Source: Euglena gracilis
Taxonomy: Eukaryota
Assembly (NCBI GenBank): GCA_039621445.1
Contig: CP154954.1
Span: forward strand, 40,045,572-40,109,571
DNA: 64,000 bases
Reading direction: 5' to 3'
Within the stretch, counting starts at the first letter, position 1; each line of letters opens with the position of its first letter. Positions 4,165-51,310 of this stretch are shown here, in pieces. The notes below the pieces were generated by a model. It had not been told where the DNA came from. It saw nothing but the letters and a program-made list of their open reading frames with translations, and searched no databases. A program made the position numbers and the translations under genes.

Positions 4165-7100
4165 CCAACCGGCCCCTCTTCGGTGCCGGCGGTGGCGGCG
4201 GTGGGGTCGGACGGCGGGGCCGCGACCTCCAGGGGAGGGGAAGGGGCGCTCCCTGCGGGGGCATCCCCGCTGTAGGCCAGCGCTGGCAGGCGGGCCGATG
4301 CAGAGGTGGGGCCGGGGGGCCCCTGCGCGGTGGCGGGCCTGGCGGCGGGGGTTGGGGAGCCTGCACGATGCTGGGCGGCTGGAACGCTTCTCAGCTGGCG
4401 GCTTCAAAGACCTCCGGGGGGGGGGGGGGGGGTGGGATGTGCTCTGGGGGGCACACACTGTGGGGACGCACACTAGGTTGAGGAATTCCGGTGGGAAATG
4501 CTGGGAATTGGTCGATGGGTTTGCCTCCCCGACTCGCCCCCCAAAACAAGCGCCTTTTGGATGGGCCAACCCCAACCCATCCCGAGGCCCCCCAACGCCC
4601 GGGCAGGCAGCCACGGGTTGCCCACTGCCGCCGCCGCCGCCGCCGCCAGCAATGCCCGCCGCCGCCCTCGTGGGCCCTTCAGGGGCGACGACGGGCAAAC
4701 AGCCACCGGCCGCCGTTGGGGCGAAGGCTGTTTGTTGAAAGAGGGGTTTCCCCGTAACTGAGCCGACCAACTGCCCCGACCACTTCCTCAATCCTTCAGA
4801 GTTGACCGAACGAGGGTCTGAGAAATGGGCATGGGTTCATGGGTCATGAGTGGGTTCCACGGTTGGCGGCGTTCTGCCTCATTTGCTCACGCATGGGCAG
4901 GGGGGGGGGGAATGCGCTGGACGGCCCTCGGAAAAAAATGCGCAAAAATGCGCAAAAAATGCGCTGAGTTTGTGTGTGACATTCCTAAGGGAAAAAGGAC
5001 TTAGAAAAATTTCCGACAGTAAACCCAAAAAATGCGCATTCTTTGAAAAATTGACAAAAATGTGCAAAAAATGCGCAAAAATGCGGAAAAATGCGCAACG
5101 CATCCCCCCCTGCCTCATCGTCATTGGATGAGTACCCACAGCACATCATCCAAGGGTTTTCTCTTGAGGCGGGTCCCTTCGGTGAAAAAAAAAGTGCGAA
5201 AATGGGTTCGTTGGTTACAGAAATGGGTCAGTTGAACATGGACAAAATTCGGTGAGCATGTGATTTGGGTGGAAAATGTGCAAAAATGGCAAAATGTGCA
5301 AAATTGGGTAAAAAATGCGCAAAAAATGTGCAAAAATGGAAAATGTGCAAAATTGGGCAAAAATGCGCAAAAAAACGCGGAAAAAAATGGAAAATGTGCA
5401 AAAATGGGGGAAATGTGCAAAAAATGCGCAAAAAAATGCGCAAAAATGCGCATTTTTGAAAAATTGACAAAAATGCGCAAACAAATGCGCAAAAATGCGG
5501 AAAAATGCGCAGCGCATTCCCCCCCCCCCCCCCGCATGGGTCTGCTGCTGGGGGTGGGTTCAACGTTTTTGGTCCTGGGATAATCCGCCTCTCACAGAGG
5601 AAGCCACGGTCCCTGCCGCGGTGCGTCGGCGTACCCGTCCCCGTCGTGGAGGGGAACGGCACACAGCGCGGTTAGCTGCCGTGACTGCCGGGGCAGGCGG
5701 GCCAGCAGCGCCAGCAGCGCCGGTAGCGCAGCCAGCCCCAGCGCCAGGGACACATGGGAGCCCCGGGGGGGGGGGTCCGGACCCACCCATCTCGAAACCC
5801 CAATTTGCAACTTAAATAAATAAACCCCCCTCCACCTATAACCCCGGGGGTTATAGGATTCGATGGTCGGCCCCGGGAGGGGGGTTATAGGTGGGGGGTG
5901 GGTTTGGTGGGGTGGGTGGTTTTGCCTTTGTTTGCCCTACATTGAAGGGGGGGGGGTTATAGGTCCTGGTTTGGTGGTTGGTCCCCAGAGGGGGCTATAA
6001 GATGGGGGGGTTATAGGTGGGAGTGGGTGTTTAAACTGTAAACTTTTCGGTTCCTTGATCAAAAGGCTGGACACCAGCCCAAAACCGTTGGAAAACCCCT
6101 CATTTAAAAAAAACAAATGAAAAAAGGGGCTCATTTTAAACTTAAGATTCTCTTGACTTCTTCCCCCTCTCCCCCAGGGGGAAGGGCTTCCCATGGATCA
6201 GAGGATTTCTTAAGGACCCTGGGGGGTCCAGCCTCCGGCGGGAAAAAAGGATGCTGGCTGGAAACGAGCTGCTGGCTGTACCCCCCCCCCGGGGGGGCTA
6301 GGGGGGGTCCGGGGCTGGAGGGGGCTGTGCTGGTCTAAAACAATTTTGCCTTCTCGACATTTTGATTTTGATGGATGGAGGTAGTGTATGTGCCAGACAT
6401 TGAGGGCGATGAGAAAAAAAATGCAGGGATAGGTGAGCTGGGCAGCCCAGTTGGCTGGCCAGCCTGCGGCCAGCTGGCCCGGCCTCTGGCCGGGCTGGAC
6501 CCAACTTATTTCTCTCGACTCCCTGGGGGGGGCTCCCAGCCCCGATTTAGGCTGCTGGCTGGATTTGAGCTGCTGGCTGGGAGGGGACCCCCCCCCAGGG
6601 GATGGGGTCCCCTCCGGCTTAAGCAATCCCCTGCCATGGATCCCTGCCCAGCACGCCCACTGCCGCGTAGCCGGTGGCAGGGGCGGGGCCGCCGCTCTGC
6701 CACAAATGGCGAAGCAAGCCCTCCGCTGCCAACAGCGAGATCAGGTGGTTCCCTGGTGCAGTGGCTCGGACCACACCGGACCCAACCGCCCGGGGGGGGG
6801 GGGGGCTTCATTGGGACAATGTTGCCCCAGCGAATGGCCAAAAGCCTCGAAAAATGGGTTGCAGGTTCTCCCGGCAGTGTGGGGGTGCGAATTTGGAGGG
6901 GCCAAATTGACCCTAAAAAGCCCGGGGTCAACAAGCTGAGGGGTGGGGGAGGTAGGTGTGGTCCAACGGATGGCTGACAAAGGACCTGTTGTGGAAGTTC
7001 GTCCGAGAACGTTGGGGTTATACGAAGGAGGGTAAAACTGGTGTAACTCGGGCCAGGTGTAAAATCAAAATTGATACAAACAGATGCATAGGACCACGGG

Positions 7101-8612: not shown

Positions 8613-10351
8613 CCGCTGGCTGCGGCGGAGAGAAAAAAATTCCTTTTTGTTGGCCGGAAGTCTCAGTTGAAGTACAGAAATTCTCGGGAAAATTAATATA
8701 CATGAACCAGCGTAAAATCTGACCTGTCGATCTTGAGCCAACCGCTGCCAAACAGGTGTGGGGAGGGGGGGCACAACTCCTTGAGGGCTTTGGCTAAACC
8801 AAATGCCAGGGGGTTCCGTTCGAAGGGGTTCTGCGGTTTAATTCCAGTTGGTGGGCCCAGGGACCTTTCCAGAAACGCAGCTTTTGGTCGCTCCAGCTGG
8901 ACCCAAGGATGGTGCAAAAAAAAACCTGTCGAGTGTCTGCAGAGACTCCGGTCGGCCAAAAATTTATTCCGGGGTTTTATTCTGGTTTATTCTGGGGTTT
9001 TCCGGTTTATTCCGGTTTATTCCGGTGAATTTCTGCCTGAATGGACTTTGGATTTTTTGAAGTACAATTGGGCCGAGGCGCTCACCTGGGCTGCAGGAAT
9101 AAGGAAGCATTCCTTGGTTGCCCAGCCCCACAAAGTGGTCACTTTCTTAGGCGGCCGAATTCGCACTTAAGCTTTTTTCCGTTGGATTTGCGCAATTGCG
9201 CAAATGTACCACTTTTTTTGTAACCCCTGGGACCCTGTACCCTGACCGCCGAAAAAAAATTTTGTGATCGCGAACGGAACTCGTTAGGGTTGGGCAATTC
9301 GAACCCCTTCGAATACAAAGTCCTAACTGGACTTCGCGAACGAACGTACGTGTTAAATTTTGTACCTGTCCCTCTCCGCAGCTGCTTTCTTTCCCGCTGC
9401 CTGCGGGGCACCTATCTACACCCACTCTTACCCCACAGCTGCCCGCGGCAAGCACCTGGCCAGATCTGGCGGCGTACGGTTTTGGACTTTTGGGTCACGA
9501 AATGTGACCTGTGGATTCCAATTGTTTGACGGACGATGCATTGAGACAACCCTGGTGGATTTGAGAATTATTGCGAGGGTGTGTTGGGTGCCAGGACTTG
9601 CGAATTACGAAGCAATTGATTATGTTCGAAGAGGGGTATGACACCCCCTGTCTTGAAGGAGTGCGAGGAAACACCCATCGAATTAGAACCTTCCAGTTGG
9701 TGTACAACAAAAATTTACTTGTGGCAAATTGCACACTTGCGCAATTGCGCGCATCAAACGATTGTGTGTACTTTAATCTTTTGGGGTGCTAAGAGGGTGG
9801 GTGAGATGTCCCAAATTGTGTCATACATGAAGAGTGTTCTAGTTTTACTTGCGCAATTGCGCGCACAATTTGTTACTTTTTGTTGTGCGGTTACCCAGTG
9901 GGTGTTGTGTGACCAATGAAACACTTTGGACGTTATCGGTCACTTAGTGGAGCGAAGGGGGGCTTGATTTGAATGACTGCTGGAGATGTTGTGACTCTGT
10001 AGATGCTATGCTGACAACCAATTTGCGAGTGTGTGCGTGATGTGCGGGGTGGTTATGGCCATATGCTGATGTTTAATTGCTGTTCCCTTGTCTGGAGCTA
10101 ACCTACATGGCGGATGACCAGGCGGGGTACAGCTGTGGATTGTTGTGATCGTGTTTTCTTGTTGACTTGCGCAATTGCGCGCACAAAACGTTTCTGAAGA
10201 AAATAAAATGACTCAGAAGGATGTGTAGTTGCGTAGTGTGTGAATGTTGTGTGCGTGCGATGCATTCTGAGTGGTGGGAGTGGCCGGTGTTATGTTGACG
10301 GAATAGTGGGTTGGTGAAAGGTGGTGGGCCGCCGGACCTGGGGTGGACTGA

Positions 10352-13300
10352 ATGGAGTCCTCCCAGGCCAGCAGCACCCACTCCCGCCGCCGTGGCTACG
10401 AGGGCTACAGCGAGGAGGCCGCCCTGGCCGCGGAGTCCGGGAAGCTGCTGGGCCAGCTGGTGAAGGCCCATTTCGCCGCCAGCTACGACGAGTTCGTGGC
10501 GGCGGTGGTTCAGCGCGGCCACCCGCTGCAGACCCTGGTGGTGCAGGTGGCCCACACCCGGGTGCCGCTGCGGACGGAGGGCGGTGCGGCGCTGCTGGAG
10601 GAGCTGGCCCGGGAGCCCCGGCGGCCGCGGATCGAGCTGCTGCTCAAGGACGCCTGGGCGGTGTACCGGGCGCTCCGACAGCACGCCTGCCCGCGCGCGG
10701 CGCAGCGGGTGGTGGCGGAGGAGCACGAGGCGCCGCTGGCGAGGCACCGGGCGGCCAGCCGACTGCTGCGGCCCAGCGGGATCCTGCCGGAGGAGCCGAT
10801 GTGGAACCGGCAGTGGCGGCGGCAGCGGGCCTGCGAGCGCCTGGAGGACCTGTGGCAGCAGTCGGAGGGGCGAAGCTGCGTCCTGTGGTTCGACAACTTC
10901 TGGAAGCGGGCCATGACGTCGAACCCGAGGATGGTGATCCGCACCCACGACTGCTGCGTCATGGCGATGATGCGGACGGCGGTGGGCGCCATCCCGGAGT
11001 ACCCGGGGTACCCGTCGCTGGAGCAGCTGCTGGGCCGCGTCCACCGGGTGTCCGCGCGGCTGGTGCGCAGCGACCTGCCGGCGTTCCTGGAGCTGGTCGC
11101 CGAGATCGGCGCACGCCCGCTGGAGGCGCAGGAGCTGCGCGTACCGCTGGACGTGCCCCGAACATCAGAGGGACTGAATGGTTTTTTGTTTTCTTCGAAT
11201 AGCCTGTGTAGGTTGATGGGACGATGCTGGTGTGAATAACCTGTGTATGTTGATGCCGATGCCTGGGGGTTAGGGTTGTGTCCGGGTCCCAGCTGAAGGG
11301 AATTGAATTACACTGTGATGTGCGCGCAATTGCGCAAATGTTAACAATGAAGTATTTGAATTTCAGTGTGGTACGCAATTGGCAGGCGGTACTATACGCG
11401 GATTTCTGTTTTGTGGTGTCAGTCGCATTTGATTTGCGCATTTGCGCACACATGTGAATTTGGATGATTTTCAGTCCTGGGCCACTGTCTGCGTCCGTCG
11501 AATGTTTCTGAAGTAACTTTTGATGCGCGCATTTGCGCAAATGCGCGCATCAAAACATTTCAGGGTCCGTTTTGAATCAGAGGTGTGACTGTGCAGTTGG
11601 TGTCACGCAAAAGGCGGTGACTCTGATGCGGCTGAGAGAACGCCCGCGTCCCGGTGTGGCGCCCCTTCATGCTGACGGACGACCGGATCTCCTCGCAGGT
11701 GGGGATGCTGAAGGTCCTCCGGTTCCTGAAGGGCGACGTGCTGGGCCGCGTGAAGGCGCCGCTGCCCCTGCTGGTGGACATCAACCTCTGGTACCGCCAG
11801 CTGAAGGTGGTGTACGGCCGGGAGTGCCAGCGGTGGGACGCGGGCGAGGCGCTGCGGCAGCTGCCCCCGCTGTACGGCGTGTGGCACGCGTACAAGCAGG
11901 TGCTGTACGTGCTGTACCGCCGCCTGCTGCCGCTGTTCCTCTTCTTGCAGCGGGGCACCATGGCGCCAGGCGAGCAGTGGTCGACCAAGCCGAAGGTGCG
12001 GGCGCTGGAGATGTGGGTCGGCGCCATGCTGCTGGTGCCGGCGGACCGCCGCGCCCGCCTGCGACGGCTGATCCGGACCCTGCGGCGGCGGCGGGACACC
12101 GTGGCGCCGGAGGTGGAGCGACGACGGCAGCAGACGCAGCAGGCCCGGCGCAGGCAGGAGGAGGCGGAGCGGCAGACCGCCCGACAGGTGCGGCACGCGA
12201 CGGCCAGCGCCAAGATGGAGCGGGCGTGGCAGTCGGGGAGCCGGGAGATGGAGTGCATCCGGGCGCTGGAGCACTGCCGCCGGAAGGAGGCTCAGGCGGT
12301 GGAGGCACTGGAGCATCTGGAGCGGGACCTGGCGGTGGCACAGGCGTTGGAGGACCTGCTGGTGGTGTGGGCGCCGGCCTGCTTCGCGCTGGGGTGGCAG
12401 GTGCGGGAGTGCCACTGGGAGGAGCGGCGGCCGCAGACCGGCGGGCAGGCGCGGAAGGTGCTGTGCAACGCCCTGACGATGCTGCTGCACCTGGAGGCGC
12501 CGACACCCGGACACCGGCCGCGCGGCCACTCCGACTACGTGCGGACGCTGGCGTGCGCGCTGCTGATGTGGGACGGGTGGCACGAGCAGCTGCCCGCCTG
12601 CTGCTTCTCGGAGGAGGTGAACGAGGCCACCCTCAGCAGGCTGGGCGGGTCCATGCAGCAGCACCCGGAGGCGGTGGAGGTGGAGGACGTGATGGACCTG
12701 TACCTCCTGGTGAGGCAGGGGCACCACGGCGCCCGGGAGCTGCGAGCGGGCGGGGTGGACCGGCGGTGGCTGGCGGACTGCCTGCGCAACCTGGACCACC
12801 TGCTGGACGGCAGTGAGCTGCGGCCGCCGGTGGACGCCCCCGACCGGCTGGTCCACCAGATGGTGACGTACGCCTCGGTGAGGGGGCTGCGCCCGGAGCG
12901 ACGGCGACAGCCGGAGGAGCTGGACGCGGACGAGGGGGAGGAGTCCGAGGACCAGTCCGTGGTCCCGCGGTGGCCGGACGGCTGGGAGGGTCCGCCGTCC
13001 ATGCTGGCGCCCGACGCGGGGCTGAAGGGCGAGACGGTCCTGAAGGACGTGCTGCAGTACGCGCTGCGGACGCTCCTGAAGGACCAGGTGCCCTCCGCCG
13101 ACGCGGCGGCGGAGCTGGACCAGCTGTGCTACGACGCGCAGGCTGGCAGCAGCCGGCGGTCGCAGGCGGAGGTGGACCTGTGCCAGGTCCACTGGGACAG
13201 CGTGCTGGGTCGCCGCCGTCCACGTCAGCAGAGGGCTGCTGGGGAGGCAGCAGCCAGACTCGCGGTTGGTCATTTACTTTCTGGGGGGAGGGCTGTAATT

Positions 13301-14047
13301 ACTGCCACCGTTGTTCTGCTGACATGATTCACGGAGGAATACCAAAGTGTATTGTAGCATTTGCGCATTTGCGCGCATCAAACGTTAAGAAAAAATATGC
13401 AAGTGGGTGGTGATGCTGTCAGTAGTGACGTACCTTGTAATGATGATTACACTTTTTTATTTGCGCAATTGCGCGCATCAAAAACGTGAACTGTTTCACA
13501 TTGATCCCAATAGACAAGTGTGGTAGGCCCCTTCTGTGTATTGTGTCTGGCACAGAGTTCCTTCACACCCCCTTGAAAGTAATGACCCATCAGTCACAGC
13601 GTTTGCATACCTGTTACGTGCTCCGTGTTTGTTTGGGTAATTCTCTGTGTTCTGAAAGCCGGGGGAAAGGTACTGAACGTTTGTAGCTGTGTAGTTTTCA
13701 GAGTGTGACCGTTTTTGAGAATAGGCTGTCAAACCCCCCTCCCAGAAGCCATACATTGTGTTACATTTGCGCAATTGCGCGCATCAAAAGTGTACTTTAA
13801 AATTTCACTGCAGTGGGGCACTGCGAGTCTGCCGTTGCCCGTGGCTGCTGACTCGTCGTCGGAGGGGTCCCTGCGTGAGCGACCGACTCGACGGTCGCGA
13901 TTCGAATCACCAGGCCCTGACACGTCACCTCAGCGGCCGGGCGGGCGAGTGCAAGGCGGAGCGCGGGGCGGCCACCAGCAGTCGGGACACTGTGGAGCCG
14001 AGGGCGTCCCACGCGTACGTCCCGGCGGACCCCTTCCAGGGGTCTGA
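10352..14047 (+). CDS. Putative DDE transposase, 878 aa, 3 exons
   Basis: Exons 10352-11159, 11634-13251 and 13837-14047 join in frame through two non-conventional introns (2637 nt). Motifs in expected order: VLWFDNF (D1), PLLVDINL (D2), PLYGVWH (GxxH), SDYVR, FSEEVNE (E). The N-terminus could extend upstream. Confidence 0.75.
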
Positions 14048-14559
14048 CTGAGCGGATTTTCTGATGAGGCGAGGATTCAGTAACTTTTGATACAAGTGAC
14101 GCCACGCTTTATTTCACGGATCAATCGGTGCGCCGTTACGAGGTGCATGTGCGCCAAAAGAAAAAAATTGAAAACTCCCCTCCGTACGCCTTCTACATTT
14201 CCAAAAAAGCAGGCCTACGGACGTCCAACGGCAAACCGCCCGTGCGTTAGCAGTTACGCGACCTGAATGCGTGACGTGTCACCCCCGGTTTGTGTTGGGC
14301 ATTTTGTGACACAGACAGGCCGTGAAAGATTACAAAAACGTAGCATATCCATACCCCCCCTTGCTACGGACCAGAATAATGCATGTTGTGCGCTCCGTTG
14401 TACTGTTTCACAGTTTTTCTATTTTTTGCCTGAAAATGCCTAAGTCGGATGAATTTTTGCCACATTTGGGGCGGGTTGCCTCCCGTGGGGTGGAAGGCGT
14501 TTAAAATGCGCTTCATTCAGCTGTTGAATGTGTAGTTCAGTCACTGGTTAGAAACCCCC

Positions 14560-14590
14560 CCTTTTTGAAAATTGCCTCAGGTCGCACACC
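14560..14590 (+). promoter_or_regulatory. Putative spliced-leader trans-splice acceptor of transposon gene B
   Basis: Partly pyrimidine-rich stretch ending CCTCAG (14580), 10 nt before ATG 14591. Confidence 0.4.
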
Positions 14591-17500
14591 ATGGCCGACC
14601 CTGTGGCTGTCCCCCCGGAGGGGGAGCCCGCCGTCCCCGGACAGGCGGAGCCCGGGACCGAGGTGGCGGCGTCCGGAGCGGAGCTCGCCCCGGCCGAGCC
14701 CGCGGCAGCCCAGGAGCCCAAGCCCGCCGCCAAGCCGGGGCGGGTACGCCCCCGCAACACCGCCCGGAAGCTCCCCATCGCGGAGGTGTACAAAGAAAAG
14801 GTGGAGCAGTGGGTGCTGGCGACCAGCACCAAACTCCCCCTCGACACCCTCCACGTCGACTACGGGATGACGGAGGGCCAGACCCGCCCCCTCGACAACA
14901 ACGAAGTGGAGCGCAAGCTCCGGCAGCTGCAGCTCAACCCCCCGCTGGAGCCGGTGAGGGTGACGGTCTGGAAGAAGGCCGGTGTGTCTCTCAGTGTGAT
15001 TGTGTGTTATATGACTGTGTGAGGTGTGACGGTCTCTCTGACATCAGTTAGCCTGTGGAGTCTCTGTTGGTATGTGGGGCTCTGCTTTGGCCACTGTGCT
15101 TTGCATGGTTGGTACTATTTGATTTGCGCAATTGCGCGCACAAGCACACAATGCATTTTATTTGCGCAATTGCGCGCACAAGCACACAATGTCATTTGAT
15201 TTGCGCAATCGCGCGCACAAGCACACAATGTCATTTGATTTGCGCAATTGCGCGCACATCCTGCCACTGTTTTCACAGAGAACCACTACGTGCTGATGTC
15301 GGGGCAGCACATCACCTCGGCGCTGAAGCGCTGGGCGGAGGGCTTCAGGTCCCAGAAGTTGAACCCCCCGAAGGATTCAGCTCTGTATTTCTTTGTGTGT
15401 TTTTTGTTTTGCCCCTCCCATGTCACCCCTCTCGTGCAGCCCCTCTCGTGCAGCCCCTCTCGTGACGCCCCTCTCATGCCACCCCTCTCGTGTCGCCCCT
15501 CCTGTGCAGCCCCTCCCAGGTCTCGCAGACAATGGTGCAAATACAGGGCTGTGGCCAGGCGAAGTACGTCCTCGCCACCATCCTCCACCCCTTGACCCCG
15601 GTGCACCTGCGGCGGGCGGCCGGCGGGGATGCGCAGGCCATCCAGTTGTCGGTGAAGGAGCTGTCCATCCCCCAGTTCGCCAACCTCCTGGTGAAGGGGA
15701 AGGACATCAGCACAGTGCCGGCGGTGCGGCTGGCGGCGGCCTACCGGCAGGCCGGCTGGGACCGGTCGGTCCCCCAGGTGTGAGCCCAGTCCAGTACTTC
15801 TGCCACAGCTCCCATGCATTTAGTTAGATGACGTTGTTCCCATTTTATTTGCGCAACTGCGCGCATAAAAATGTTTCACAAAGACGTAGTGCATTGTCAT
15901 GATGTACTGGCGTAGGGTTCCAGTCTCTGTGTCATTGCCTCAGGGGCAGGTCATCCAGATGTGGGGGCCGCTGCAGCGGCTGGTGGAGGAGAACCCGGAG
16001 GCGGTGGCGGGGCTGCTGAGCGTCGAGTCGGCGCTGGCGGCGAGGGGCCGCACGCTGCTGTCCTCCCACGTGCGGTCCCTCCGGCGGCTGCTGACCCCCG
16101 AGGCGCGGGCGCAGGTGGCGGCGGCGCTGCGGAGCCCGGGGATCGGCCTGGCCCAGCTGGAGCAGGCGGTGACCGAGGCCACCCACGAGATGTGGTGGCC
16201 TTCGCGTGGCGGGGCGACAACCCCAACATCCACGCGCGGATGGGTGTGCCACTGGGGTCTGCGTGGGTCGGGGTTGCATATGAAGGGTGCCCATAGCATT
16301 GGACGGCGGTTGGTGGTGATGGTCACTGGGTGCATTGCAAGTGTGGTCACGTGCTTCTCCCCCCCCCCTTCACTGTTGTCTCGCAGTGCACAACGGGGCG
16401 GAGCGCAGCCGCTTCAAGCGGACCGTCCCGGTGGCGGCGCTGCAGGTGGCGAGGCTCGGGTCGTGGACCTGGAGCCCGGCGGAGCCGAAGCCCCCGCTGG
16501 CGGCGGTGCTGACGGCCCCCTTCTGGGTGGAGGCGCAGTACAAGGAGCTGCGGGCCACCTTCGCCTTCCCGACGGTGGAGACCGAGGTGGTGGCCAAGGA
16601 GGGCGGGGCCCTCCAGGAGGTGGGGGTGGCCCGGCCGGCCGGGGAGGAGAAGGGGGTGCGCTGCCTGGTGTACCAGGCCAGCGGCGGAGCGGTCCCGGCG
16701 GAGGCGCTGGGGGCCGCAGTGGCCTCGTCGCCATCGAGGTCACCCACAACACGGGCTCAGGGTTCTGTTTAAACGTGAGTCTTTTCAATTTTAGTAGTTT
16801 CTGTTTCACTTGCGCAATTGCGCGCACAAAAAAAAGAAATTCATACTCCCACTCTCAACAGAAACAGCTCCCCAGTTGTGTATGCAATTTTTTTTTAAAT
16901 TTGATGCGCGCACTTGCGCAAATGTTTTGTTGCACGCACTTGCGCAAATCCAATGACTCAAGGTGTCTGTCAATGCTCCAACACACTCTCAAACAGAATC
17001 CTGCCCCCTCCTGTCCGAGCAGGTCAAGCGCCTGGCCGGCGTCGTGCCGGTCGCCATCTACGGCGGTGCCGGGGCGGTGGCTGCGGTGGAGGCGGCGGTG
17101 CGGCGGCTGGCGCCGGGGCGGGAGTCGGTGACGGTGGACGTCTGGCTGCGGCAGGGGGGCCAGGGGGTGGCCCGCAAGTTCGAGAAGCGGGCCCTGGTGG
17201 TCGTGTACGGCCCGGGTGACGTGGAGCGAAGCAAGGTACCCACCCCACCTCACGCATTCTGCAGATTGTCATTCCGCATTTCAGACAGTGGATACTGGAG
17301 GGTCACCCATCCAGTGCATCTTTTTTAAAATGTGATCGTTTGATGCGCGCAATTGCGCGCACCTTATACAAGAAAACTCTTTCAGCCTTCCATGCCTGTC
17401 TGGTCCCATCGTGCCCTCGCAGGTGCTGCCCAAGGTGGAGTGGGACGTGGAGTCCAGCTGCGGGCAGGGGCTGCACTGGCTGTGCGTGGAGTGGCTGTGG

Positions 17501-18773
17501 CGGAGGGTGGCGCGGCGGATGGAGGCCGCCAACGCCATGGTGATCCAGACCACCGACGCCGCGGTGGCCGGCCGGGTGGCGGCCTGGGCAGCCAAGCCCC
17601 CGGAGGTGCTGGTGGTGGTGGAGGACTCGGCCAGCAGCCTGGAGGACGTCACCCAGACCGTGGCCAACACGGTGACCCTGCCCCGGCCCGTCGCCTCCGC
17701 CATGCTGCCCCTCCTGCTGGCCGCCCTGGAAGGGGGGGACGCCCTCTGGGCCCCCCTGGAGAACGCCGCCCTGCAGGACAAGCTCCGCCTGGCCGCTGAG
17801 GAGGCGGGACGAAGGGCCAAGGAGGCCGAGGAGCGGCGCCGCCAGACCAAGATCCGGCAGGAGCAGCGCCGCCTGCAGAAGCTGGAGGAGCGCCAGAAGG
17901 GTGGGGCTGACCGGAAGAAGAAGCGCCGGAAGAAGGAGCCGGAGAAGAGGCCCAGCAGGCCCCCAGTCCCCAAGCCCCGACGGGAGGAGACCGAGGCGGT
18001 GGACAGCCCGGAGGAGGGCGACGTGGAGATGACCGCGCCCGGCCGGGAGACCCCGGAGCTGACCCCGCCCGAACCCGGAGCCAGCCCCATCATCGTGCCG
18101 CCGCCGGTGGCCCAGCCCAGCCGCCACCCGGAGGAGGAGGAGGTGGAGGAGGACAGTAGCAGCAGCAGCAGCAGCAGCAGTGACAGCTCGGACACCTCCT
18201 CCGCAGTCGCCAGCGAAGCTCCCGCGGTCCCACCAGTGCAGCAGGGAGAAGAGGAAGAGGAGGAGGACACCATCGAGGAGATCACCCCCGGGTACCGGAA
18301 GCCGGAGCCGCAGAAGGGGAAGGAGCGACAGGGGGAGGAGAAGAAGGGGGAGGGCAAGGGCAAGGGCAAGGGCAAGGGAGCCAAGGAGGACACCCGGTGG
18401 AAGGCGGCGGGACTGATCCGTCCCCCGGGCCCGGGGGAGGCCCTGAAGCCTGAAGGGCCCCAAGTCGTACCACCTCCTCGACCCCAAGAAGTACCCGGCG
18501 ATGAAGCACATCGTCGAGGCATCCAAGGCCAAGGTGGCCGCGGAGGCAGCGTCGTCGCAGGCAGCGGCGGCCTCGGCACCGGCGGCGACGCAGGAGGCGG
18601 AGTCCGAGGAGGAGGAGTCCGAGGAGGAGGAGGCCCCGGCACCGCCACCGCCTCGTACCGCCCCGCCTGCGGCGCCCCGGAGCACCGTCCGCCGCGGGCT
18701 GCCCAAGCCCGGCGCCAAGCCGGCGGCCGCCTCGGAGAGCCTGGCCAAGCGGCTCACCAAGCACAAGAAGTGA
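14591..18773 (+). pseudogene. Transposon accessory gene: ParB/Srx-like N-terminus, possible degenerate methyltransferase fold, coiled-coil and acidic tail; two frameshifts in this copy (~965 aa if repaired)
   Basis: Exons 14591-14981, 15279-15374, 15557-15777, 15944-16243, 16387-16718, 17023-17235, 17423-18773. Spliced sequence GQTRPLDNNEVERKLRQLQLNPPLEPVRVTVWKKAENHYVLMSGQHITSAL. Frame is restored by adding one G near 16193 and removing the CCTGAAG duplication at 18442-18455. Confidence 0.7.
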
Positions 18774-20972
18774 GACTGGCTGTGGGCCTGTCTCAGCACC
18801 TTCTTCTTTTTTTTTCTTCAGTTCTACTCCCCACTCCATTCTCTGCTTCTCATGTTTTTTTTTTAACAAAACACATTTGATGCGCGCATTTGCGCAAATG
18901 TTACAGTTACAAGTTTGTTTCCCCCTCTCAGTCCCCTCTCGGCTATGGTCTGTCCCCTCTCAGAATTCTTGGTTCAAATAAAAAAGTTCATCGTTTGTGT
19001 TGATGCGCGCAATTGCGCAAATCAAATGCACACTTTGTTTTTTTGTTATTTGCCTGCCAGTTGGGAGACAGTGCCCCACCGCCATGGGTGTCCGTGTACA
19101 CCGCCCCCCTGCTGACCGTCATCCCCACGCCCTCTACCCTGCAGGGAGGTGGACTTCTGTTTTTTTTTTTTGTGGGTTGGTGTGACACACCCCCTCTCGT
19201 GACCCTGCAGCCCCCCTCTCGTGTCGTGCTGCCCCTCTCGCCCGTGTTCAAAAAAAAATAATTACCCCTCCCCTCAAGCACCGCCCCCCACTGACAACCA
19301 GCGCGCGGCGGAGTGCGGGGCGGCCCCCCTCCTCCTGTTCAGCCCCGGGCGGCCAGCGTGTACCCCCGCCCGCCGGGGGTCTGTTTGCCAGTCGGCCTTT
19401 TTTCTTTCCCCTCCTGTCTTTTCATCCCCATCTCTTTCAATCATGTGGTTCTTCCATTGGCACCCCTCTCATCCCATGGCACGCACACCGTCGTACGTTT
19501 TATTTGCGCAATTGCGCGCATCAACATCAATTATCTGTTTTGTGACTCAAAAAAAACAGCAAGGGCAAAGTAATGCGTGGCACGCACGCAAGCCTCCACA
19601 CACAGGCAACCAGGCCACCACTGACAACCCCTGCGGGCGCCTGACCCCCACCGCCCTGCCCGCCGCACACCACCCCTGCACACCCCCTGCACCGTCACCC
19701 CTGCACCCCTGGACCCCTCCTCCCCCTATCCCCTGCACACCGGACCCCCCAACCCGCACCCCTCCCAGAGCCCTGCCACCCTGTCCCCTGCTTTCTTCAC
19801 CAATCAAAAATTCCCAAGTCTCCAAGGTAAAAGTACACACACACACACTCCGAGGCACCGGGAGGGAACACACTGCCGGCGAGTTTGCTTTCCCAAAAAA
19901 GGCTCCGCGTCACCACAGGGGCGGGCAGGGTCCCGGTCCCCAGGTGCTTTTTTCACTTTTTTTCCGTTTGGGCGGGCAGGGTCCCGGGGGTTTGGCCCAA
20001 AATAAAATTTCTGGACACCCAAAAAAAGCCAGTTTTTTGTCAAAGTCCCAGGGGTCTCTCCGCCAAAACCAAAAAATCGCTTCGTTTTTGCCCCTGCTGG
20101 CCGGCATGTCTCTTGAACCCCCGGACCTTCACTGCCGGAATCAAAAAACCGGGGGATTTGCGCATATGCGCAAATAAAAAGTTAAATCCTTAAGTGCGAA
20201 TTAGGCCGCCTAAGACTTTGCACTTGGTGGTGCTGGTCTGCACACCACAGCAAATGCCTGCCTTTTCGGGAGAAATAAGCTGATAAACATTGGCGCGCCC
20301 AGGGTTTTCTCTTGAGGCAAGTCCCTGGCACCGCTTTCTTTCTTTCTTCCCAAAAATTGTCCCGCCGAGTGATAATTGCTTGTTCCAAGGTGCGGGACTA
20401 AAAAAAAACCTCATAAATGCCGCACTCATTGCGCAATGTCCCAGCGCAATCATGGGGTCGCTCAGCAGCAAAGCGAAAATCAACTTCCCTATTCCAATAA
20501 AACCCCCCTCCCCTAGAAAGTGCACGGGTGCGCACATTTTAAGGACGGTTTGGGCCCCAAGGGGTGCGCAATTATCAGGGCACTGCACACTTATCACGAC
20601 AAAGCACAAAAATGCTTAATTTTCCACCACTCTTTTTCAATTTTCTCCCTCCTTGCAATGTCAAGCAATGCGTCAAGTGATTATGTGTTGTATTTGGGCT
20701 TGGACAATAGAAATTTTGGTCTGAGAAGGACAATTCTGATAATGTTGTGTCCTTTTCGACCTGAGATGACAGTGATTTCTCCTTTGGGGGGGGTGCCGAC
20801 TTTTTAGGGAGGTAAATTCGGATCCTTTGGGGGGGGGTGGCCTAAATTGAATAAAGTGTCATTAACCACTTCACCAGTAGCTTGTGCTCGATCTCACGGC
20901 TGGCCCATTTGCACTCCATGAAAACACACCCACCACGTACCGTTTTTCTCCTCGCGCAACTGTTTGAGCACA

Positions 20973-21035: not shown

Positions 21036-22453
21036 TTTTTCTGCTGTCTTACAAGCTTGCTTGATGGCCTGGACATGCTTGCTCAACAATTTTGTCAACG
21101 TTGGGTCTTTTCGCAAATCAGACGCAGACCTGGAAAAAATCCAAACTAAAATTGAACAAAAACCTGAACGTGCCGTGCACATCAGTGCATTTGCGAAGGC
21201 ACCCCCTTTCACGCCTTTATGTTTGGCAGAAGCCACGTGTTTTGTGCCAAAGTTGATTTTTTTCACCTGCACTTCCACCCTGCAAAAAAATACATCACAT
21301 ATTGTCTGATCCTTCACAAATGCAAAACACTCCCTTGGGGAAATCCTGAAATTGCCTGGAAGCTGTCATTGCTTTTGTACATTTCGCCCCACTCACCTAT
21401 CCTTTGGAAGACCTTGATTTCTTCATTGGTGGTCCACGGTCCACCCTCTTCATCCAATCCATCTGACATGAGGTTGACTGAGGAAAATCATGAAAATGCA
21501 TTAAACTCCACCTTCATTGCCTTTGTGTCTTGCAGAATTTTCAAGCCGTTGGCTGGCACTTTTATTCCGGTAATTCCGGTTTAGACCGGAATATCTCCCT
21601 GCCCCTGGTGTCTGCTTTGATGTCGTTGGGCCATTTCACACCATCTTGGTGCGCGGGGGGGGGGGGGGGGCAGCAAGGAAATCTACACCACGATCCACAG
21701 AAATCTGAGTTGGAAGTTGTTCCAAGCCATATGGCATGCGGTGGTGGGTGCTGTCTCTCCAATGACATGCCAACCCATCTTGTAGACCCCCCAACATCGA
21801 TGCACTGCGGTGCCCATGGGGAGGGTAAAGCGCAGACATTTGGGCAGCGGCCAACCACCACGAAACGGCCACATACTAAGACGAAATGCGGGTAATGATT
21901 CCACTGCTGGGCGGTGAAAGGGTCAGACACAGGCACAGGTTGGGCGTGGTGAAGGGCGAACCACGAGACTGGCATTCCGACTTCGTTTGTGCCACGTGGC
22001 AAGGGAGGAGAGAGTGTACAGGCGGCCGACCTGGTGGGCAGTCAGACAACCAGACCGGGGAAAAGGAATCTGTTGTCACATTGGCTCAGAACTGCACAAC
22101 ACAGACACAAAGTCACGTTGTCTTGTCTTCCCGCATCGGGCTGGCCACGCTCGAAACCCTCCCCACCACCGGAAGGTCGCCTGCAAGCGGCTGGGATGGC
22201 CAAACAACGTGACAAACAGCCAGAGCAGAGGTCAGGGGCACAAGGAGGGCAGGGCCAGGGGCCAAAGGGGCCGGGGGGTCGATGCACCGAGGCTGCCCAG
22301 CGGCGAACAGCGGAGCTTCCGCACATGAGGGGCAACCCGCCTGCCTAATCCGCAGGAAAAACGCAGACAGACACCCGCCGCCGCGCGGCACAGACAATCA
22401 TTTGAAGTAAGTGTGCCACGGCAGTTGCGTCGCGGCGGAGTATATAACGCTTT

Positions 22454-23130
22454 GGCAGCTCCCAACTATACGGCCCACGGGTCAGATACTTGGGAGTGGG
22501 GGGGGTCGTATGGTGGGACCCAGGTCCGACCTTTCGAAGAAAGTCAGGGTTTTGATTGGAATAGGGTTAGGGTTCCGGCCGGCGGGCCGTAGGGCACCCA
22601 TTTTTGGTCAGGGAGAAGTTAGGTCGCATTCTGGACGAATTTGGGCCGAATTTAGGCCAAATTCAGGCAAATTTCGGGCGAAATGTGTTTTCAAAAATCT
22701 TCCGAAATAGAGACCTAACCTCTGGCCTAACTTACTCCCTAAATTTGGCTGATTCTTGGCACGCCAATCCTAACCGGCAGCTCCCCACTATAGGGCCCCC
22801 CCAGGGGGGGGCATATAGTGGGGAGGGGGGGGGGTCAGAATAGCTTTTTTTGCATTAATGATGGAGTAGAGTTAGGTGCGCGACTTAGGGTTAGGGTTAG
22901 ACCTAACTTATAGACGGGTGTTCGGTGTACAAGTTAGGCCTAACCCTAAGCCTAAGTCGCGCACCTAACCCTACTCCATCATTAATGCAACAAACACCCC
23001 CCCCCCTACTCCCAACTATATGGCCCCCCCTGGGGGGCATAGAGTTGGGAGCTGCCTCCTAACCCTAACCCTATTCCTAAAATTCAGCAGGAACCCTCCC
23101 CGAATCTGCCACCGGTTGCCGGAAAACCGG
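22454..23130. mobile_element. GGCAGC-terminal non-autonomous element, interrupted and truncated
   Basis: Starts GGCAGCTCCCAACTA; body is the reverse complement of much of 23754-24263; interrupted by the MITE at 22776-23056. Confidence 0.7.
22776..23056. mobile_element. MITE, GGCAGC termini, 8-bp TSD, internal TTAGGG/CCCTAA arms
   Basis: GGCAGCTCCC...GGGAGCTGCC, TSD TCCTAACC (22768-22775, 23057-23064). Confidence 0.88.
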
Positions 23131-23277
23131 TCATGTGCAAAGAAATGTCATTGTCAAATGTCATGTGCAAAGAAAACGGCATTTTGGGTGCGGGAAAATG
23201 CGGTTGATCTGGGCGGTGTGTCATAGACCAGCCGTGTCGGGGACAAAGGGGGTGGGAAGGTATGTGTAAATTTTTAC

Positions 23278-23552
23278 GGCAGCCCGAAACTACTGGCCCC
23301 TCCCGGGGGGCCCAGTAGTTAATCCGGGGGTCAAATAGTTTTTTTGCGTTAATGATGGAATAGGGTTATGTGCGCGATTTAGGGTTAGGGTTAGGCCTAA
23401 CTGGTACACCGAACACCCGTCTATAAGTTAGGCCTAACCCTAACCCTAAGTCGCGCACCTAACCCTATTCCATCATTAACGCAAAAAAACTATTTTGACC
23501 CCCCCGGATTAACTACTGGCCCCCCGGGGGGGCCCAGTAGTTTCGGGCTGCC
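23278..23552. mobile_element. MITE, GGCAGC termini, 8-bp TSD, near-fully palindromic with telomeric-type repeats
   Basis: GGCAGCCCGAAACTACTGG...CCAGTAGTTTCGGGCTGCC, TSD ATTTTTAC (23270-23277, 23553-23560). Confidence 0.9.
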
Positions 23553-23753
23553 ATTTTTACTTATTTTTGCCATCGTGGAGGAGGCACAAAAAAGTTTGTG
23601 GCCACACTGCAGTGTGGAAAAAACAACAGGTTTTCTCTTTGGTGCCGCAGTACTTGTGGCACTTGCAATAAACATCACCAGTCAGTAACAAAAAAAGTAC
23701 GCAGTGGCGGCACAAAAAACGTCATTCTTCTGGTTCTTCCACCAGCTCCAAAT

Positions 23754-24263
23754 GGCAGCTCCCAACTGTACGACCCGCGGGTCGGATAGTTGGGAGCGGG
23801 GGGGGGGGCATGGTGGGACCCAAATCCCACTTTTTGACTTTTCGGTCCCACGACGCCAGGAAAACGCGCGGTTTCCCGGCAACCGGTGGCGGATTCAGGG
23901 AGGGTTCCTGCTGAATTTTAGGAATAGGGTTAGGGTTAGGATTGGCGTGCCAAGAATCAGCCAAATTTAGGGAGTAAGTTAGGCCAGAGGTTAGGTCCTC
24001 ATTTCGGAAGATTTTTGAAAACGCATTTTCGTCCAAAATTTCGCCGAAAATTTGCCTAAATTTGGCCTAAATTCGGCCCAAATTCGTCCAGAATGCGGCC
24101 TAACTTCTCCCTAACTTCCCAAAAATGGGTGCCCTACGGCCCGCCGGCTGGATCCCTGACCCTATTCCAATCAAAACCCCGACTTCTTCCGAAAGGTCGG
24201 ACCTGGGTCCCACCATACGCCCCCCCCCCCCCCGCTCCCAACTATCTGACCGGCGGTCGTATA
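23754..24263. mobile_element. GGCAGC-terminal non-autonomous element, inverted relative to the 22454 copy
   Basis: Starts GGCAGCTCCCAACTG; the distal end matches the start of the 22454 copy in reverse but lacks the final bases. Confidence 0.7.
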
Positions 24264-24464: not shown

Positions 24465-24680
24465 CCCAATCACGTCTGGTCACGTGCAGTCACACACAAT
24501 CACGCGCAGTCACGTCCGGTCACATGCAGTGACACACAATCACGCGCAGTCATGTCTGGTCACATGCATTCACACACAATCACTTGCAGTCACGCTGGTC
24601 ACGTGCAGTCACACACAATCGCGTGCAGTCACGTCCGATCACACACAGTCACACACAATCACGCGCAGTTGCGCCCGGTC
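24465..24680. repeat. Minisatellite built on CAGTCACACACAATCACGCG units
   Basis: Degenerate tandem GTCAC-based units visible directly. Confidence 0.8.
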
Positions 24681-25767: not shown

Positions 25768-26214
25768 CAGGGGGGGGGGGATGCGCTCGCCCGGCCTCGG
25801 AAAAAAATGCGCAAAAATGCGCAAAAATGCGCAAAAAATGCGCAAAAAATGTGCAAAATCCGAGAAAAAATGCGCAAAAATCACGAAAATGCAAAAATTA
25901 CCCAAAAACATGCAAAAATAGCACCAAATTTGAAGAAATTATGTAGAATAATGAGGAAAATGTACGTTTCAAAAAAAGTCAAAAATTTCAAATTTTTGCA
26001 AAAAATTGCAAAAATGGTCAAAAAAATGCGAAAATTTTGGAAAATCACGAAAAAATGTGCCAAAAAACAAAAAAATGTGCTGAAAAAAACGAAAAAAATG
26101 CGCAAAAAATGCGAAAAAATGCGCAAAAAATGCGCACTTTTGGAAAATTTGAAAAAATGCGCAAAAAATGCGCAAAAATGCGAAAAAATGCGAAACGCAT
26201 TTCCCCCCCCCCTG
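25768..26214. mobile_element. MITE with CAGGGG termini, 7-bp TSD, AAAATGCGC-rich body
   Basis: CAG(G)nATGCG...CGCATTT(C)nTG flanked by CACCCTC (25761-25767, 26215-26221). Confidence 0.82.
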
Positions 26215-45987: not shown

Positions 45988-46442
45988 TACGAACCCTTAG
46001 GCAGAAGCCTGACCCCAACACTTTTTTGGCCGGGTGTGCTTGCAACCAGAAAACCTGACCTCCCCCCCCCTCCCCACCGCCCCACCGGTTACCAACAGCA
46101 CGCCCCCAAACTTCTTCCCCCCCCCCCGCCCATTGGGAGGGGGTTCTCCACCAACAGACCCAAGTCGGTGTGGGACCCCCCGGGGGGCCAGCTATTTCGG
46201 ACGAAAAAATTTGTGCTGGAGAAAAATTTCGTCAGCACAAAAACTTTCGGCTGGTCCAACTTCCAGGCCCGCTGTGCAGGACCCCAGGGGGGGGGGGGTT
46301 GGCCCATCCCAACCTCACGAGAAGCCTGGTTTCAACACCCGAATGCCTGGAGAGCGACGCCCACCCAGGTGCCAGGTCATGGAGGCTGCGGTGAGCCAGC
46401 CGCACCCTGCAGCCAACCCCCAACCCGTTGGCCGGGGCACAC

Positions 46443-49400: not shown

Positions 49401-51259
49401 ATTCACAAAATTTTTGCCGGCACAGATCAAATCCAGGCTTCTTTTTAAGACCCCCGGGGGGGGGGGTCCCCCCACCCACCCAGGGTGGCGCGGGACCCCC
49501 CCGGGGGGGGGGGGGGGGGCCGGGGACCCCCCCCCCAAAATCGGGCCCGTTAAAGGCAATTTCCAAAAAAATTCGGCGCTTCGCGCCGAAAAGGTGTACC
49601 CAGCGCCTCCGGCGCGGGACCCCCCCCCCGGGGGGGGGGGGTCCGGCCCGGACCCACCCACCCACCCCCCCTCCCCCCGGGAGGGGGGGGGGTCTGCTGA
49701 CTTAAAAAGAAGCCTGATTCAAATCACAAAAATGCAGATTTGTAAAAAAAAATTTGTCCGCACAAAAAAACAGAACACAGAAAATTAAAGACAGCTGATA
49801 AAGCAGGTGTCCACCAGGTGTCTACCACAATCTTTCCAAACTATTTTTTTTGCAAATTTTAAAATAAATTTCACTTTTTTGACCAAAAGCACATATTTTG
49901 CATATATTGTGCAGATTTAGGCACATTCCGGGGTTTTGCAGGAGTTTTTTTGGCAGCATAGTTGCTCATTCCCGCATAATTTGACCGCACACTTTTGGGC
50001 TCGATTTGGGCATTTCATACTACTTGGGCGCCTTTCCTTCCTTTTAGACCATTTTTCGCCATTTTTGGGTCATTTTGGGCATTTTTTATGTGGCACAGAC
50101 CTCGCTCTAGTACACGTTGGTAGAAAAACTTACTGCATCGCATTTTGAAAAAAAAATATGTTTTCATCAACAATTTTTCCCGTCATTCAGTGCCCTCCCT
50201 GGAGGAGCCATGCAAGTTTTCAAGTTTTCAAGGTTTCAGAAACTGACCTACAAAAAAATACTTTTGCCTTTCGGTGGAGGTGGGAGAGACGACAAAAAGA
50301 GGCAGAATGGATGGCATAAAGATACAACGCAAATCAAAATGTGCCTTTCTTAGAGGTTTGAGAGGGAATTCTGGTCGCCAAAAATTCCCAAGAAAGGGGT
50401 CAGATTTTGAGGGAGGCATCAACTTCTTTTTCATAGGCAGCCTAGGTTTCCTTCGTGTGATTGTGCAAAAATACCATCTTTTGAAATTCCCAATTAACCC
50501 CCCCAGTTTAAAATTTCTGTCTTTATGTTGGGCGAAAATTCAAACCCCTGTAGGGGTTTGTTTATAAACTTGGGGAGGTTGTATTTGGAGGGTTTACATT
50601 GTATTTGGGGGGGGGGGGTAAATGGCACCCAGACCCGTAAAATATATGCAGAGCAGATGTCCCCGCAGCTGACCGGACATGTACGCCTAAGATGTGTCTT
50701 GGAACCCACCGACGACTGCCTCATCAATTTGGGATGGTGCTGGAACAATTTGGGGCAGGCGAGCCCTTCATGATTCCATGCACGTAGACCTTTGAAAAAA
50801 AAATTGCCGCCCGGCAACTGCTCAAACAGAAGGTTCCTGCAATTGCCCAAAGGGTCCTCCCTGGGCACTCGAATCACAAAAAACGTTAAATATGACAAAA
50901 GACTCACCTATTGGGCGCAAAATTTGGGCTTCGGCAGTTGAGTCTGTGAAAAACCATTTTGCCACTTGTAAATTGTGAGCCACTTGTACAATTGTGCAAA
51001 GAACCATGTTCCTTTGCCAAATTGGGCAGGGGGAACTTACTCAAAAAACCACGCAATGTCCATGGGGAGGGATCCAGCACCACAGGAATTCAGGTAATGC
51101 CACACTTTAAGGCATTAACTTCCCCTCCAAACAGACTGGCATCGGAGGACGTTGGTTGGTTTAAAATGGTTCCTTTGCACAAAATGGACAAAGGAACTCA
51201 GATTCTTGTTGACGTGTGGGTGTCCCAAAATCAATGGAGAAATTTGCGTGCGTGCGTGC

Positions 51260-51310
<51 letters not shown>

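Follow-up and report, generated by a model that had tools for sequence, protein, structure and literature searches.

A highly repeated Euglena gracilis DNA transposon with 24 organised palindromic motif sites and a gene predicted to encode a ParB-fold domain

The DNA analysed here, called the window, is a stretch of 64,000 nucleotides from Euglena gracilis (contig CP154954.1 of assembly GCA_039621445.1, positions 40,045,572 to 40,109,571 of the forward strand), and all coordinates below are positions within it. The segment 9146-20214 holds a single copy of a eukaryotic cut-and-paste DNA transposon that is highly repeated; this copy is slightly damaged. The element is about 11 kb long (11069 bp) and carries two genes, both on the plus strand: gene A, which presumably encodes the transposase, and gene B, the N terminus of which is predicted to fold as a ParB/sulfiredoxin-type domain. 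Along the element lie 24 sites of a palindromic motif, which are arranged in a regular manner beside both terminal inverted repeats (TIRs), in introns and in untranslated DNA, and which may be bound by the protein that gene B encodes. The coordinates of all features are collected in Table 1.

Three features expected of a Class II TIR element are present, namely TIRs, a flanking duplication, and many copies that are common up to the TIR and different beyond it. The element does not belong to the CACTA/En-Spm group: its termini read CTTAGG, its target-site duplication (TSD) has 5 bp, a length that is read from this one copy only, and Pfam gave no tnp2 or TnpA match in the window exons or in the gene A relatives. 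The copy number was surveyed by aligning contigs from four public runs to window 9000-20400. In X1, the best DNA run, 21092 contigs matched, 6204 of them at 99% identity or more, 7980 at 95-99% and 6908 at 90-95%. Just before 9146 there are 58 loose contig ends with a mutual agreement of 0.37, which come from contigs of other copies, and because these ends diverge there, the left boundary was placed where the TIR starts. The depth in the bin that holds the left end (TIR and left palindrome) is about six times that of the next bin, and one set of contigs is common over 9146-9246 and divergent beyond. This deep shared segment fits an end module that is required in cis and has been kept by many derivative elements. 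All four runs consist of contigs that are mostly DNA-like; the "RNA?" labels of some runs are guesses, and introns are covered too (record 13 spans 16181-16717). Bins without cover in run X20 carry no weight, and the share of 0.08 that falls to a leaf-litter metatranscriptome is small and is no evidence of habitat.

The palindromic motif is confined to the element. With up to two mismatches, the 16-mer TTGCGCANNTGCGCAA has 22 matches in the window, all within 9188-20173 and none in the remaining 53 kb, compared with an expectation of 0.35 and a maximum of 3 in 100 shuffles. All 14 window occurrences of the exact 12-mer GCGCAATTGCGC are inside the element. The shorter core GCGCA-NN-TGCGC, searched with up to one mismatch, was matched 27 times, and 25 of these matches belong to motif sites; the other two are strays, one unflanked and chance-like at 14143 and one outside the element at 24663. 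Further afield, the pattern of the terminal palindromes had no match in viral contigs. A scan of metagenome contigs with TTGCGCAATTGCGCGCA found at least 120 loci with one match each; among the 120 listed, the number of core-like matches per locus never exceeds three and tblastn with P0002 detected no gene A relative, and we read these matches as chance.

When the 24 sites are aligned in register, each consists of two half-sites that flank a central A(A/T)(T/C)T. There are two kinds of half-site: the T half-site is ATTTGCGCA, and the GC half-site is (TTGA/TTGT)TGCGCGCA, with the short form TGCGCGCAYCAA. They combine into two T/T sites, 21 heterotypic T/GC sites and one GC/GC site. The consensus of the site is Ttt.ATTTGCGCAAtTGCGCGCAtcAaaa, and its informative positions span no more than about 27 bp. 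An exact GCGCA-NN-TGCGC with a canonical TT or GC dinucleotide on both sides is found in 18 of the 24 sites. The T/T type is restricted to the two ends, the T/GC type is internal and the GC/GC type occurs once; the statistic for this sorting ignores the common descent of the sites. Outside the 27-bp unit, the flanks of the sites are unrelated, with the exception of the 39-bp tandem array of intron B1, which is the sole segmental duplication. Since, apart from that array, nothing beyond these roughly 27 bp is similar between sites, the motif appears to have been maintained in its own right and not just duplicated together with neighbouring sequence.

Six adjacent pairs of sites (window 9739-19506) lie 91-123 bp apart (112, 112, 91, 100, 96 and 123 bp). 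This spacing may reflect a preferred pairing distance.

An initial annotation, made from the sequence of this DNA alone, had proposed that the palindromes are placed in an organised manner, and the arrangement is real: the ends are bipartite, the interior sites are asymmetric, the motif is restricted to non-coding DNA, and six of the eight introns contain it. The palindrome scan recovered both of the perfect 20-bp copies that had been reported at 9186-9205 and 20156-20175, and their distances to the TIRs were also correct, with spacers of 14 bp (9172-9185) on the left and 13 bp (20176-20188) on the right, the sequences of which are unrelated. The two terminal palindromes differ solely in the centre, which is AATT on the left and ATAT on the right, so that perfect symmetry is preserved in each. 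The statement that perfect copies mark the ends holds in part. Both end copies are perfect, but perfect palindromes were also found in the interior, at 17344-17361 and at 11518-11555, and what is found at the ends alone is the T/T type. The internal copies had been described as asymmetric and present in both orientations, in agreement with the 21 T/GC sites, of which 15 point one way and six the other.

Introns A1, A2, B1, B3, B5 and B6 account for the six introns with sites, holding 4, 3, 4, 1, 3 and 1, respectively, whereas no site was found in introns B2 and B4. The three sites upstream of gene A are accompanied by a degenerate third half-site, at 9731. The exon model covers 5713 of the 11069 bp, and the reported absence of copies from exons was borne out: none of the 25 motif matches with up to two mismatches is wholly in exons, and two of 33 are when three mismatches are allowed. 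This absence needs no special explanation, since coding constraint predicts the same for any motif of 20-27 bp. The initial annotation had further suggested that the introns may be retained as carriers of binding sites. A binding role of the motif is plausible; retention of introns for this purpose would be a stronger claim, and intron A1 is not found throughout the gene A family.

Table 1. Positions of the transposon ends, motif sites and gene models in the window (a dot in the strand column marks features listed without a strand)
Feature	Position	Strand	Evidence and remarks
Target-site duplication ACTTT, left	9141-9145	.	Identical 5 bases at the right end
Left TIR, CTTAGGCGGCCGAATTCGCACTTAAG	9146-9171	+	26 bp, 25/26 complementary to the right TIR (1 mismatch)
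Left subterminal perfect 20-bp palindrome ATTTGCGCAATTGCGCAAAT, T/T	9186-9205	.	Sequence and palindrome scan
Three heterotypic sites upstream of gene A	9727-10188; cores 9739, 9851, 10169	.	Motif scan
Gene A exon 1	10352-11180	+	ORF; aligns to P0002 residues 5-255 (tblastn E 2e-72); conserved WFDNFWKR
Intron A1 (GT..AG, 456 bp)	11181-11636	+	Splice model; cores 11324, 11436, 11527, 11535
38-bp perfect composite palindrome (GC, T, T, GC halves; two overlapping T/GC sites)	11518-11555	.	Intron A1
Gene A exon 2	11637-13327 (ORF stop)	+	tblastn E 6e-136 to P0002; LLVDxNLWYRQ, GVWHxYKQ, CCFSEExNEA stretches
"Intron A2" or 3' UTR, three heterotypic sites	13355-13790; cores 13363, 13463, 13769	.	Motif scan, splice model
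Gene B exon 1	14591-14981	+	Acidic/proline-rich lead, then start of the predicted ParB-fold domain (GQTR, NPP, VTVW)
Intron B1	14982-15278	+	Four tandem 39-bp units, one heterotypic site each (cores 15126, 15164, 15203, 15242)
Gene B exon 2, YVLMSGQHITSALK	15279-15384	+	Second conserved block of the predicted ParB-fold domain; SGQH
Intron B2, boundaries uncertain	15385-15509	+	No motif site; 14-bp CCCCTCTCGTGCAG array in its place
Intron B3	15778-15943	+	One site, core 15851
One-base deletion in gene B	16193-16194	+	G missing in the window copy, present in most other copies
Intron B4	16244-16386	+	No motif site
Intron B5	16775-17022	+	Three sites, cores 16812, 16908, 16934
Intron B6	17236-17422	+	Holds the GC/GC site (17344-17361)
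18-bp perfect GC/GC palindrome	17344-17361	.	Palindrome scan; inside intron B6
Gene B last exon(s)	17423-18775	+	Charged low-complexity tail; frame changes near 18440
Three heterotypic sites downstream of gene B	18876-19526; cores 18884, 19007, 19506	.	Motif scan
Right subterminal perfect 20-bp palindrome ATTTGCGCATATGCGCAAAT, T/T	20156-20175	.	Sequence and palindrome scan
Right TIR, complement of CTTAGGCGGCCGAATTCGCACTTAAG	20189-20214	-	26 bp, 1 mismatch against the left TIR
Target-site duplication ACTTT, right	20215-20219	.	Pairs with the left copy

The N-terminal part of gene B is the feature of the element that points to a candidate binder. Inspection of the first two exons by eye had suggested a ParB N-terminal domain. 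The evidence on its fold comes from a homologue, P0028 (322 residues, encoded without the first introns), which is tied to the window by a tblastn match to 14834-14971 in exon 1 (E 9e-11) and by an alignment of 22 sequences. The AlphaFold2 model built from this alignment has a predicted local distance difference test (pLDDT) score above 90 over residues 55-180. A Foldseek search of the PDB with the model gave 15 hits at E of 0.001 or less, and every listed one is ParB, KorB or Noc; the top Foldseek matches include ParB from M. xanthus, Caulobacter and B. subtilis, KorB of RK2, Noc, PadC and sulfiredoxins. In VIA, P0028 superimposes on Myxococcus xanthus ParB (7bnr) with a Z of 10.5 and a root-mean-square deviation (rmsd) of 2.2 Å over 92 residues. 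The first 32 VIA rows are all of the ParB or Srx type, with ParB-family entries at Z 8-10.5, and then Z falls to 4.3. The residues that are invariant in the family (G-Q-x-R, P and W) are all present in the window gene as GQTR, NPP and VTVW. On this modelling, the N terminus of gene B is a predicted ParB/sulfiredoxin-fold domain. No second domain was detected by Pfam on single exons or by the Atlas on the last exon, and a search for longer gene B relatives found none.

Gene B spans 14591-18775 and has six GT..AG introns in the splice model. The introns of both genes were placed by GT..AG splice-site models and homology only, and no spliced joint was seen among the 15 joints listed (of 164) from the contig survey. 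Of the 22 aligned exon-1 relatives, 16 are open reading frame (ORF) fragments that lose similarity within a few residues past the conserved tryptophan, which is where intron B1 starts in the window, and in the other six the similarity extends to the second conserved block. An old intron at the B1 position that is absent in some lineages would fit this distribution. The window copy of gene B is damaged. In X1, 48407 of 75890 depth units carry the G that is missing after 16193, as does all depth in X15, X16 and X20, and with this G restored, exon 4 continues to the GT at 16244. Further frame problems lie near 16720-16775 and 18440, and the donor of intron B5 requires the second frame change in the window copy, the donor being at 16719 otherwise. 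The copy is thus probably not autonomous. It is worth mentioning that a second short repeat, CCCCTCTCGTG(CAG), forms seven tandem copies in intron B2 (15411-15515) and recurs in the 3' non-coding part of the element (18925-18965 and 19190-19240).

Gene A belongs to a small family. A profile search of a collection of 5.8 billion proteins found 13 relatives with 40-54% identity to window exon 2, none of which is annotated; the family proteins are P0001-P0010 and P0052-P0055, and three relatives are encoded on contigs of 10.0-11.0 kb, near the length of the element. A search with an alignment of gene A proteins found no relative in metagenome or viral contigs. Six relatives (P0001, P0002, P0004, P0005, P0006 and P0052) are full-length, uninterrupted ORFs of about 800-890 residues, from which it follows that intron A1 is not family-wide. 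The stretch PLDVPRxxARxPVW, which is split by this intron in the window, is read unbroken in the five aligned relatives P0001, P0002, P0004, P0005 and P0006. The second gene A intron of the initial annotation (13265-13813) could be modelled and contains three sites, but it may instead be 3' untranslated region (UTR), as the gene A relatives terminate near the equivalent of 13270.

The family is conserved in four stretches, WxDNFxKR, LLVDxNLWYRQ, GVWHxYKQ and CCxSEExNEA, and a long helical insert lies in the part between LLVDxNLWYRQ and CCxSEExNEA. On visual inspection, the alignment of the relatives shows conserved D, D and E positions, and a D...D...E spacing with a long insert is typical of DDE transposases. 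Pfam gave no meaningful match for the window exons or for the six relatives. The presumed core has a pLDDT below 50 in the AlphaFold2 model, and Foldseek returned from this poorly modelled core only long-helix matches at E above 0.06. The sole lead is a match in the language-model Atlas to DUF6589 clusters (0.91, 176 shared features); the Pfam model of DUF6589 (PF20231) has no match at E of 10 or less in the six relatives, and the literature on DUF6589 yielded a passing mention only. From its conserved pattern, gene A is presumed to be a transposase, a DDE-like orphan without family assignment and possibly an undescribed transposase lineage.

Our preferred interpretation, held tentatively and with somewhat less than even confidence, is that the motifs are cis-acting protein-binding sites, for which a dimer of the protein encoded by gene B of the same element is the likeliest binder. 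The dyad symmetry and the occurrence of both orientations fit a dimer that recognises double-stranded DNA, not an RNA signal. ParB, KorB, Noc and VirB are dimers that bind palindromes, and several of them act over kilobases as clamps switched by cytidine triphosphate (CTP); since ParB, KorB and Noc bind DNA in this way, gene B is the best candidate among the proteins considered. We infer that gene A acts as the transposase and that gene B binds the motif, and the following effects are conditional on this. Each end would be bipartite in function, with the 26-bp TIR as the presumed transposase site and the T/T palindrome 13-14 bp further in. The 22 internal sites, nearly all of which pair a T half with a GC half, would bring the same protein onto the body of the element, by recruitment or loading. 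Such binding might serve to regulate the chromatin of the element or its transcription, by anti-silencing or autoregulation as with VirB, KorB and plant VANC, or alternatively to help bring the element ends together. The confinement to introns and untranslated DNA would follow from the inability of coding sequence to accommodate a motif of 20-27 bp.

Several results weigh against this interpretation. The 540-bp spacer in front of gene B has no site. Among 40 of 658 differences between copies that were listed, 32 are non-coding and none is in the 12-bp cores, but about 1.8 would be expected there and the deficit is not significant. Pfam models of the ParB type gave no match at E of 1 or less in the window exons or at E of 0.1 or less in 13 homologues, and a profile search of PDB sequences with gene B returned low-complexity matches only. 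A helix-turn-helix DNA-binding domain, which follows the N-domain in ParB, KorB and Noc, is at most putative in gene B: the corresponding region is helical in the P0028 model with a pLDDT of 50-60, and the single VIA row that spans both domains covers 143 residues at an rmsd of 7.5 Å. ParB-type CTPases have a nucleotide box I of the Q-x-R type and an arginine-rich box II. In the gene B family, as mapped by eye, the invariant G-Q-x-R would correspond to box I, but the second conserved block reads G-Q-H-x-x-K-A at the presumed box II position, and because it is not arginine-rich, a CTP switch is doubtful. Lastly, transposases commonly bind subterminal repeats themselves, which makes gene A a serious alternative binder.

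Indeed, the gene A protein, as the presumed DDE transposase, might be what binds the motifs, with gene B doing something else. Ac/Ds, En/Spm, hAT and P elements offer parallels with their subterminal and internal repeats, and the perfect palindromes, placed symmetrically 13-14 bp inside both TIRs, occupy the classic place of transposase sites. The end module is also the most abundant part of the family, and gene A has the D...D...E-like conserved pattern with a long helical insert. However, no DNA-binding or transposase family was recognised in gene A and its catalytic core could not be modelled with confidence; 22 sites across the body would be unusual, as transposase sites cluster within a few hundred base pairs of the ends; and a dedicated palindrome-binding fold is encoded next door. 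We therefore regard this explanation as unlikely, although it has a real chance of being right. Binding by a host transcription factor, for which the sites would be dispersed enhancers or promoter elements of both genes, is quite improbable in our view. The 615 bp before the gene A start codon contain three sites, intronic enhancers are common, and the T/T core contains TTGCGCAA, a half-site which we take to resemble the bZIP palindrome of the C/EBP type. Against these points, gene B has no sites in front of it, the remaining 53 kb of the window, where there are other genes, lack the motif, the conserved unit of 27 bp with its distinct GC half exceeds a bZIP site, and the mirrored placement beside both TIRs is left without an explanation.

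The same mirrored copies also go unexplained if the motifs are functionless, that is, relics of a small palindromic insertion (introner-like, or a miniature inverted-repeat transposable element, MITE) that seeded introns, or products of slippage or of microhomology in gap repair. This idea gains from the 39-bp tandem array in intron B1 and from the gene A relatives without intron A1, an intron that may thus be a later insertion. Moreover, 15 of the 164 joints in the contig survey were listed, and in 14 of these one side comes within 20 nt of a motif core, which is what recombination between copies at such places would give, but the sides of those joints are only 20-27 letters long and are flagged as unreliable, for which reason the motif-adjacent joints were discounted as deletion derivatives. 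The introns are not similar along their length, as members of an introner-like family would be, and have nothing in common beyond the 27-bp unit; in addition, the cores are nearly invariant (the 18 of 24 mentioned above), whereas neutral relics should decay with their flanks. An origin of this kind is improbable. Action in the pre-mRNA, as hairpins that aid splicing or yield small RNAs, has hardly any weight with us: most sites are intronic and palindromes can fold, but the sites occur in both orientations (15 and 6) and also outside genes, beside the TIRs, the stems would have only 8-9 bp with a loop of 2-4 nt, and no Rfam family matches anywhere in the window.

Binding of the motifs by gene B protein can be extended into a fuller picture, in which the element carries a complete ParB/parS-like module. 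A nucleotide-switched clamp would load at about two dozen palindromes and spread over the 11 kb, shielding the element from silencing or pairing its ends; symmetric sites would mark the ends and asymmetric sites the interior, and the introns would be kept in part as the sole carriers of sites within the genes. Taken as a whole, this picture is doubtful, and we consider it unlikely to hold in all its parts.

Other repeats were observed elsewhere in the window. Two arrays of units of about 10-11 bp (AAAAATGCGC and variants) lie in the same orientation and 20 kb apart, at 4939-5490 and 25808-26178, and an 18-bp perfect palindrome, CAAAAATGCGCATTTTTG, is found in arrays of this type at 5441-5458. 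They have a TGCGCA core in common with the motif of the element, yet are a different repeat, and are possibly the subterminal arrays of another element. At 22450-24240 there is a nest of long inverted repeats, with arms of 70-150 nt that are 90-96% complementary, which suggests another element of the foldback or MITE-like type. On the minus strand at 46430-57210, a 95-nt unit occurs six times, at intervals of 0.3-4.6 kb and with 63-78% identity to the reference copy; these copies look like repeated exons of a gene or gene cluster of the leucine-rich-repeat type.

ParB-family proteins are best known as palindrome-binding, CTP-switched clamps on the DNA of bacterial chromosomes and plasmids. To our knowledge, ParB-family accessory genes in eukaryotic transposons were noticed only in 2025, and their target sites are not yet defined. 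A literature search on the present family found no description of the motif or of the gene pair. The element offers a clean pair for testing, namely a ParB-fold protein in which no fused enzyme domain was detected and 24 sites of three types. If gene B protein does bind these sites, a bacterial module of partition or silencing would have been re-used by a eukaryotic mobile element, the keeping of motif-bearing introns by the element would have a reason, and the pair might serve as an orthogonal DNA-binding and spreading system for eukaryotic cells.

Among known transposons, En/Spm with its TnpA, which binds 12-bp subterminal repeats, the P element and Ac/Ds are systems in which a second, non-catalytic protein or the transposase binds many short repeats just inside the TIRs, in both orientations. 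The element in the window differs from En/Spm in its termini (CTTAGG, not CACTA), in its TSD (5 bp, not 3 bp) and in having sites along the whole element, not only in the few hundred subterminal base pairs. The bacterial systems ParB-parS, KorB-OB, Noc-NBS, VirB-virS and BisD are similar to gene B in the fold of the ParB N-domain (Z 8-10.5). However, gene B is eukaryotic and intron-bearing, its presumed box II is not arginine-rich, and no ParA partner was seen. KorB slides from OB sites on plasmid RK2 and regulates distant promoters (PMC11790492), and VirB, which has a ParB fold, counteracts silencing (PMC10770331).

Among eukaryotic elements, Arabidopsis VANDAL21 provides a case in which VANC21 binds short motifs that have accumulated, often in tandem, in the non-coding regions of its own element (PMC5735166). 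VANC21 is unrelated to ParB, its carrier is Mutator-like, and its motifs are apparently not palindromes. The closest likeness is with transposons of algae. The accessory gene PAG3 of red algal Plavaka elements has a ParB-like N-domain that is missed by Pfam and InterPro and finds 7BNR as its best HHpred hit, and it also has a putative 2-oxoglutarate (2OG)-oxygenase domain (10.1101/2025.02.11.637652). In Ectocarpus, Sola1-1_Ec32 encodes a ParB-like/DNA-methyltransferase protein (PMC12477816). In these red and brown algal transposons, inverted repeats are arrayed in tandem beside the ParB-like gene, and binding to the own element has been proposed (10.1101/2025.02.11.637652; PMC12477816). Both cases resemble gene B in being a transposon accessory gene with an N-terminal ParB-like domain missed by Pfam and with inverted repeats on the element, and 7BNR tops the HHpred search with PAG3 as it tops our fold search. 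Gene B differs from PAG3 and from the Ectocarpus protein in that Pfam on single exons and the Atlas detected no second domain. The algal carriers are Plavaka/EnSpm, Zisupton and Sola1, whereas the carrier here has the unclassified gene A. Whereas the algal repeats are tandem arrays next to the gene, the Euglena element has 24 sites dispersed over 11 kb, within introns and next to both TIRs among other places, with distinct terminal and internal forms.

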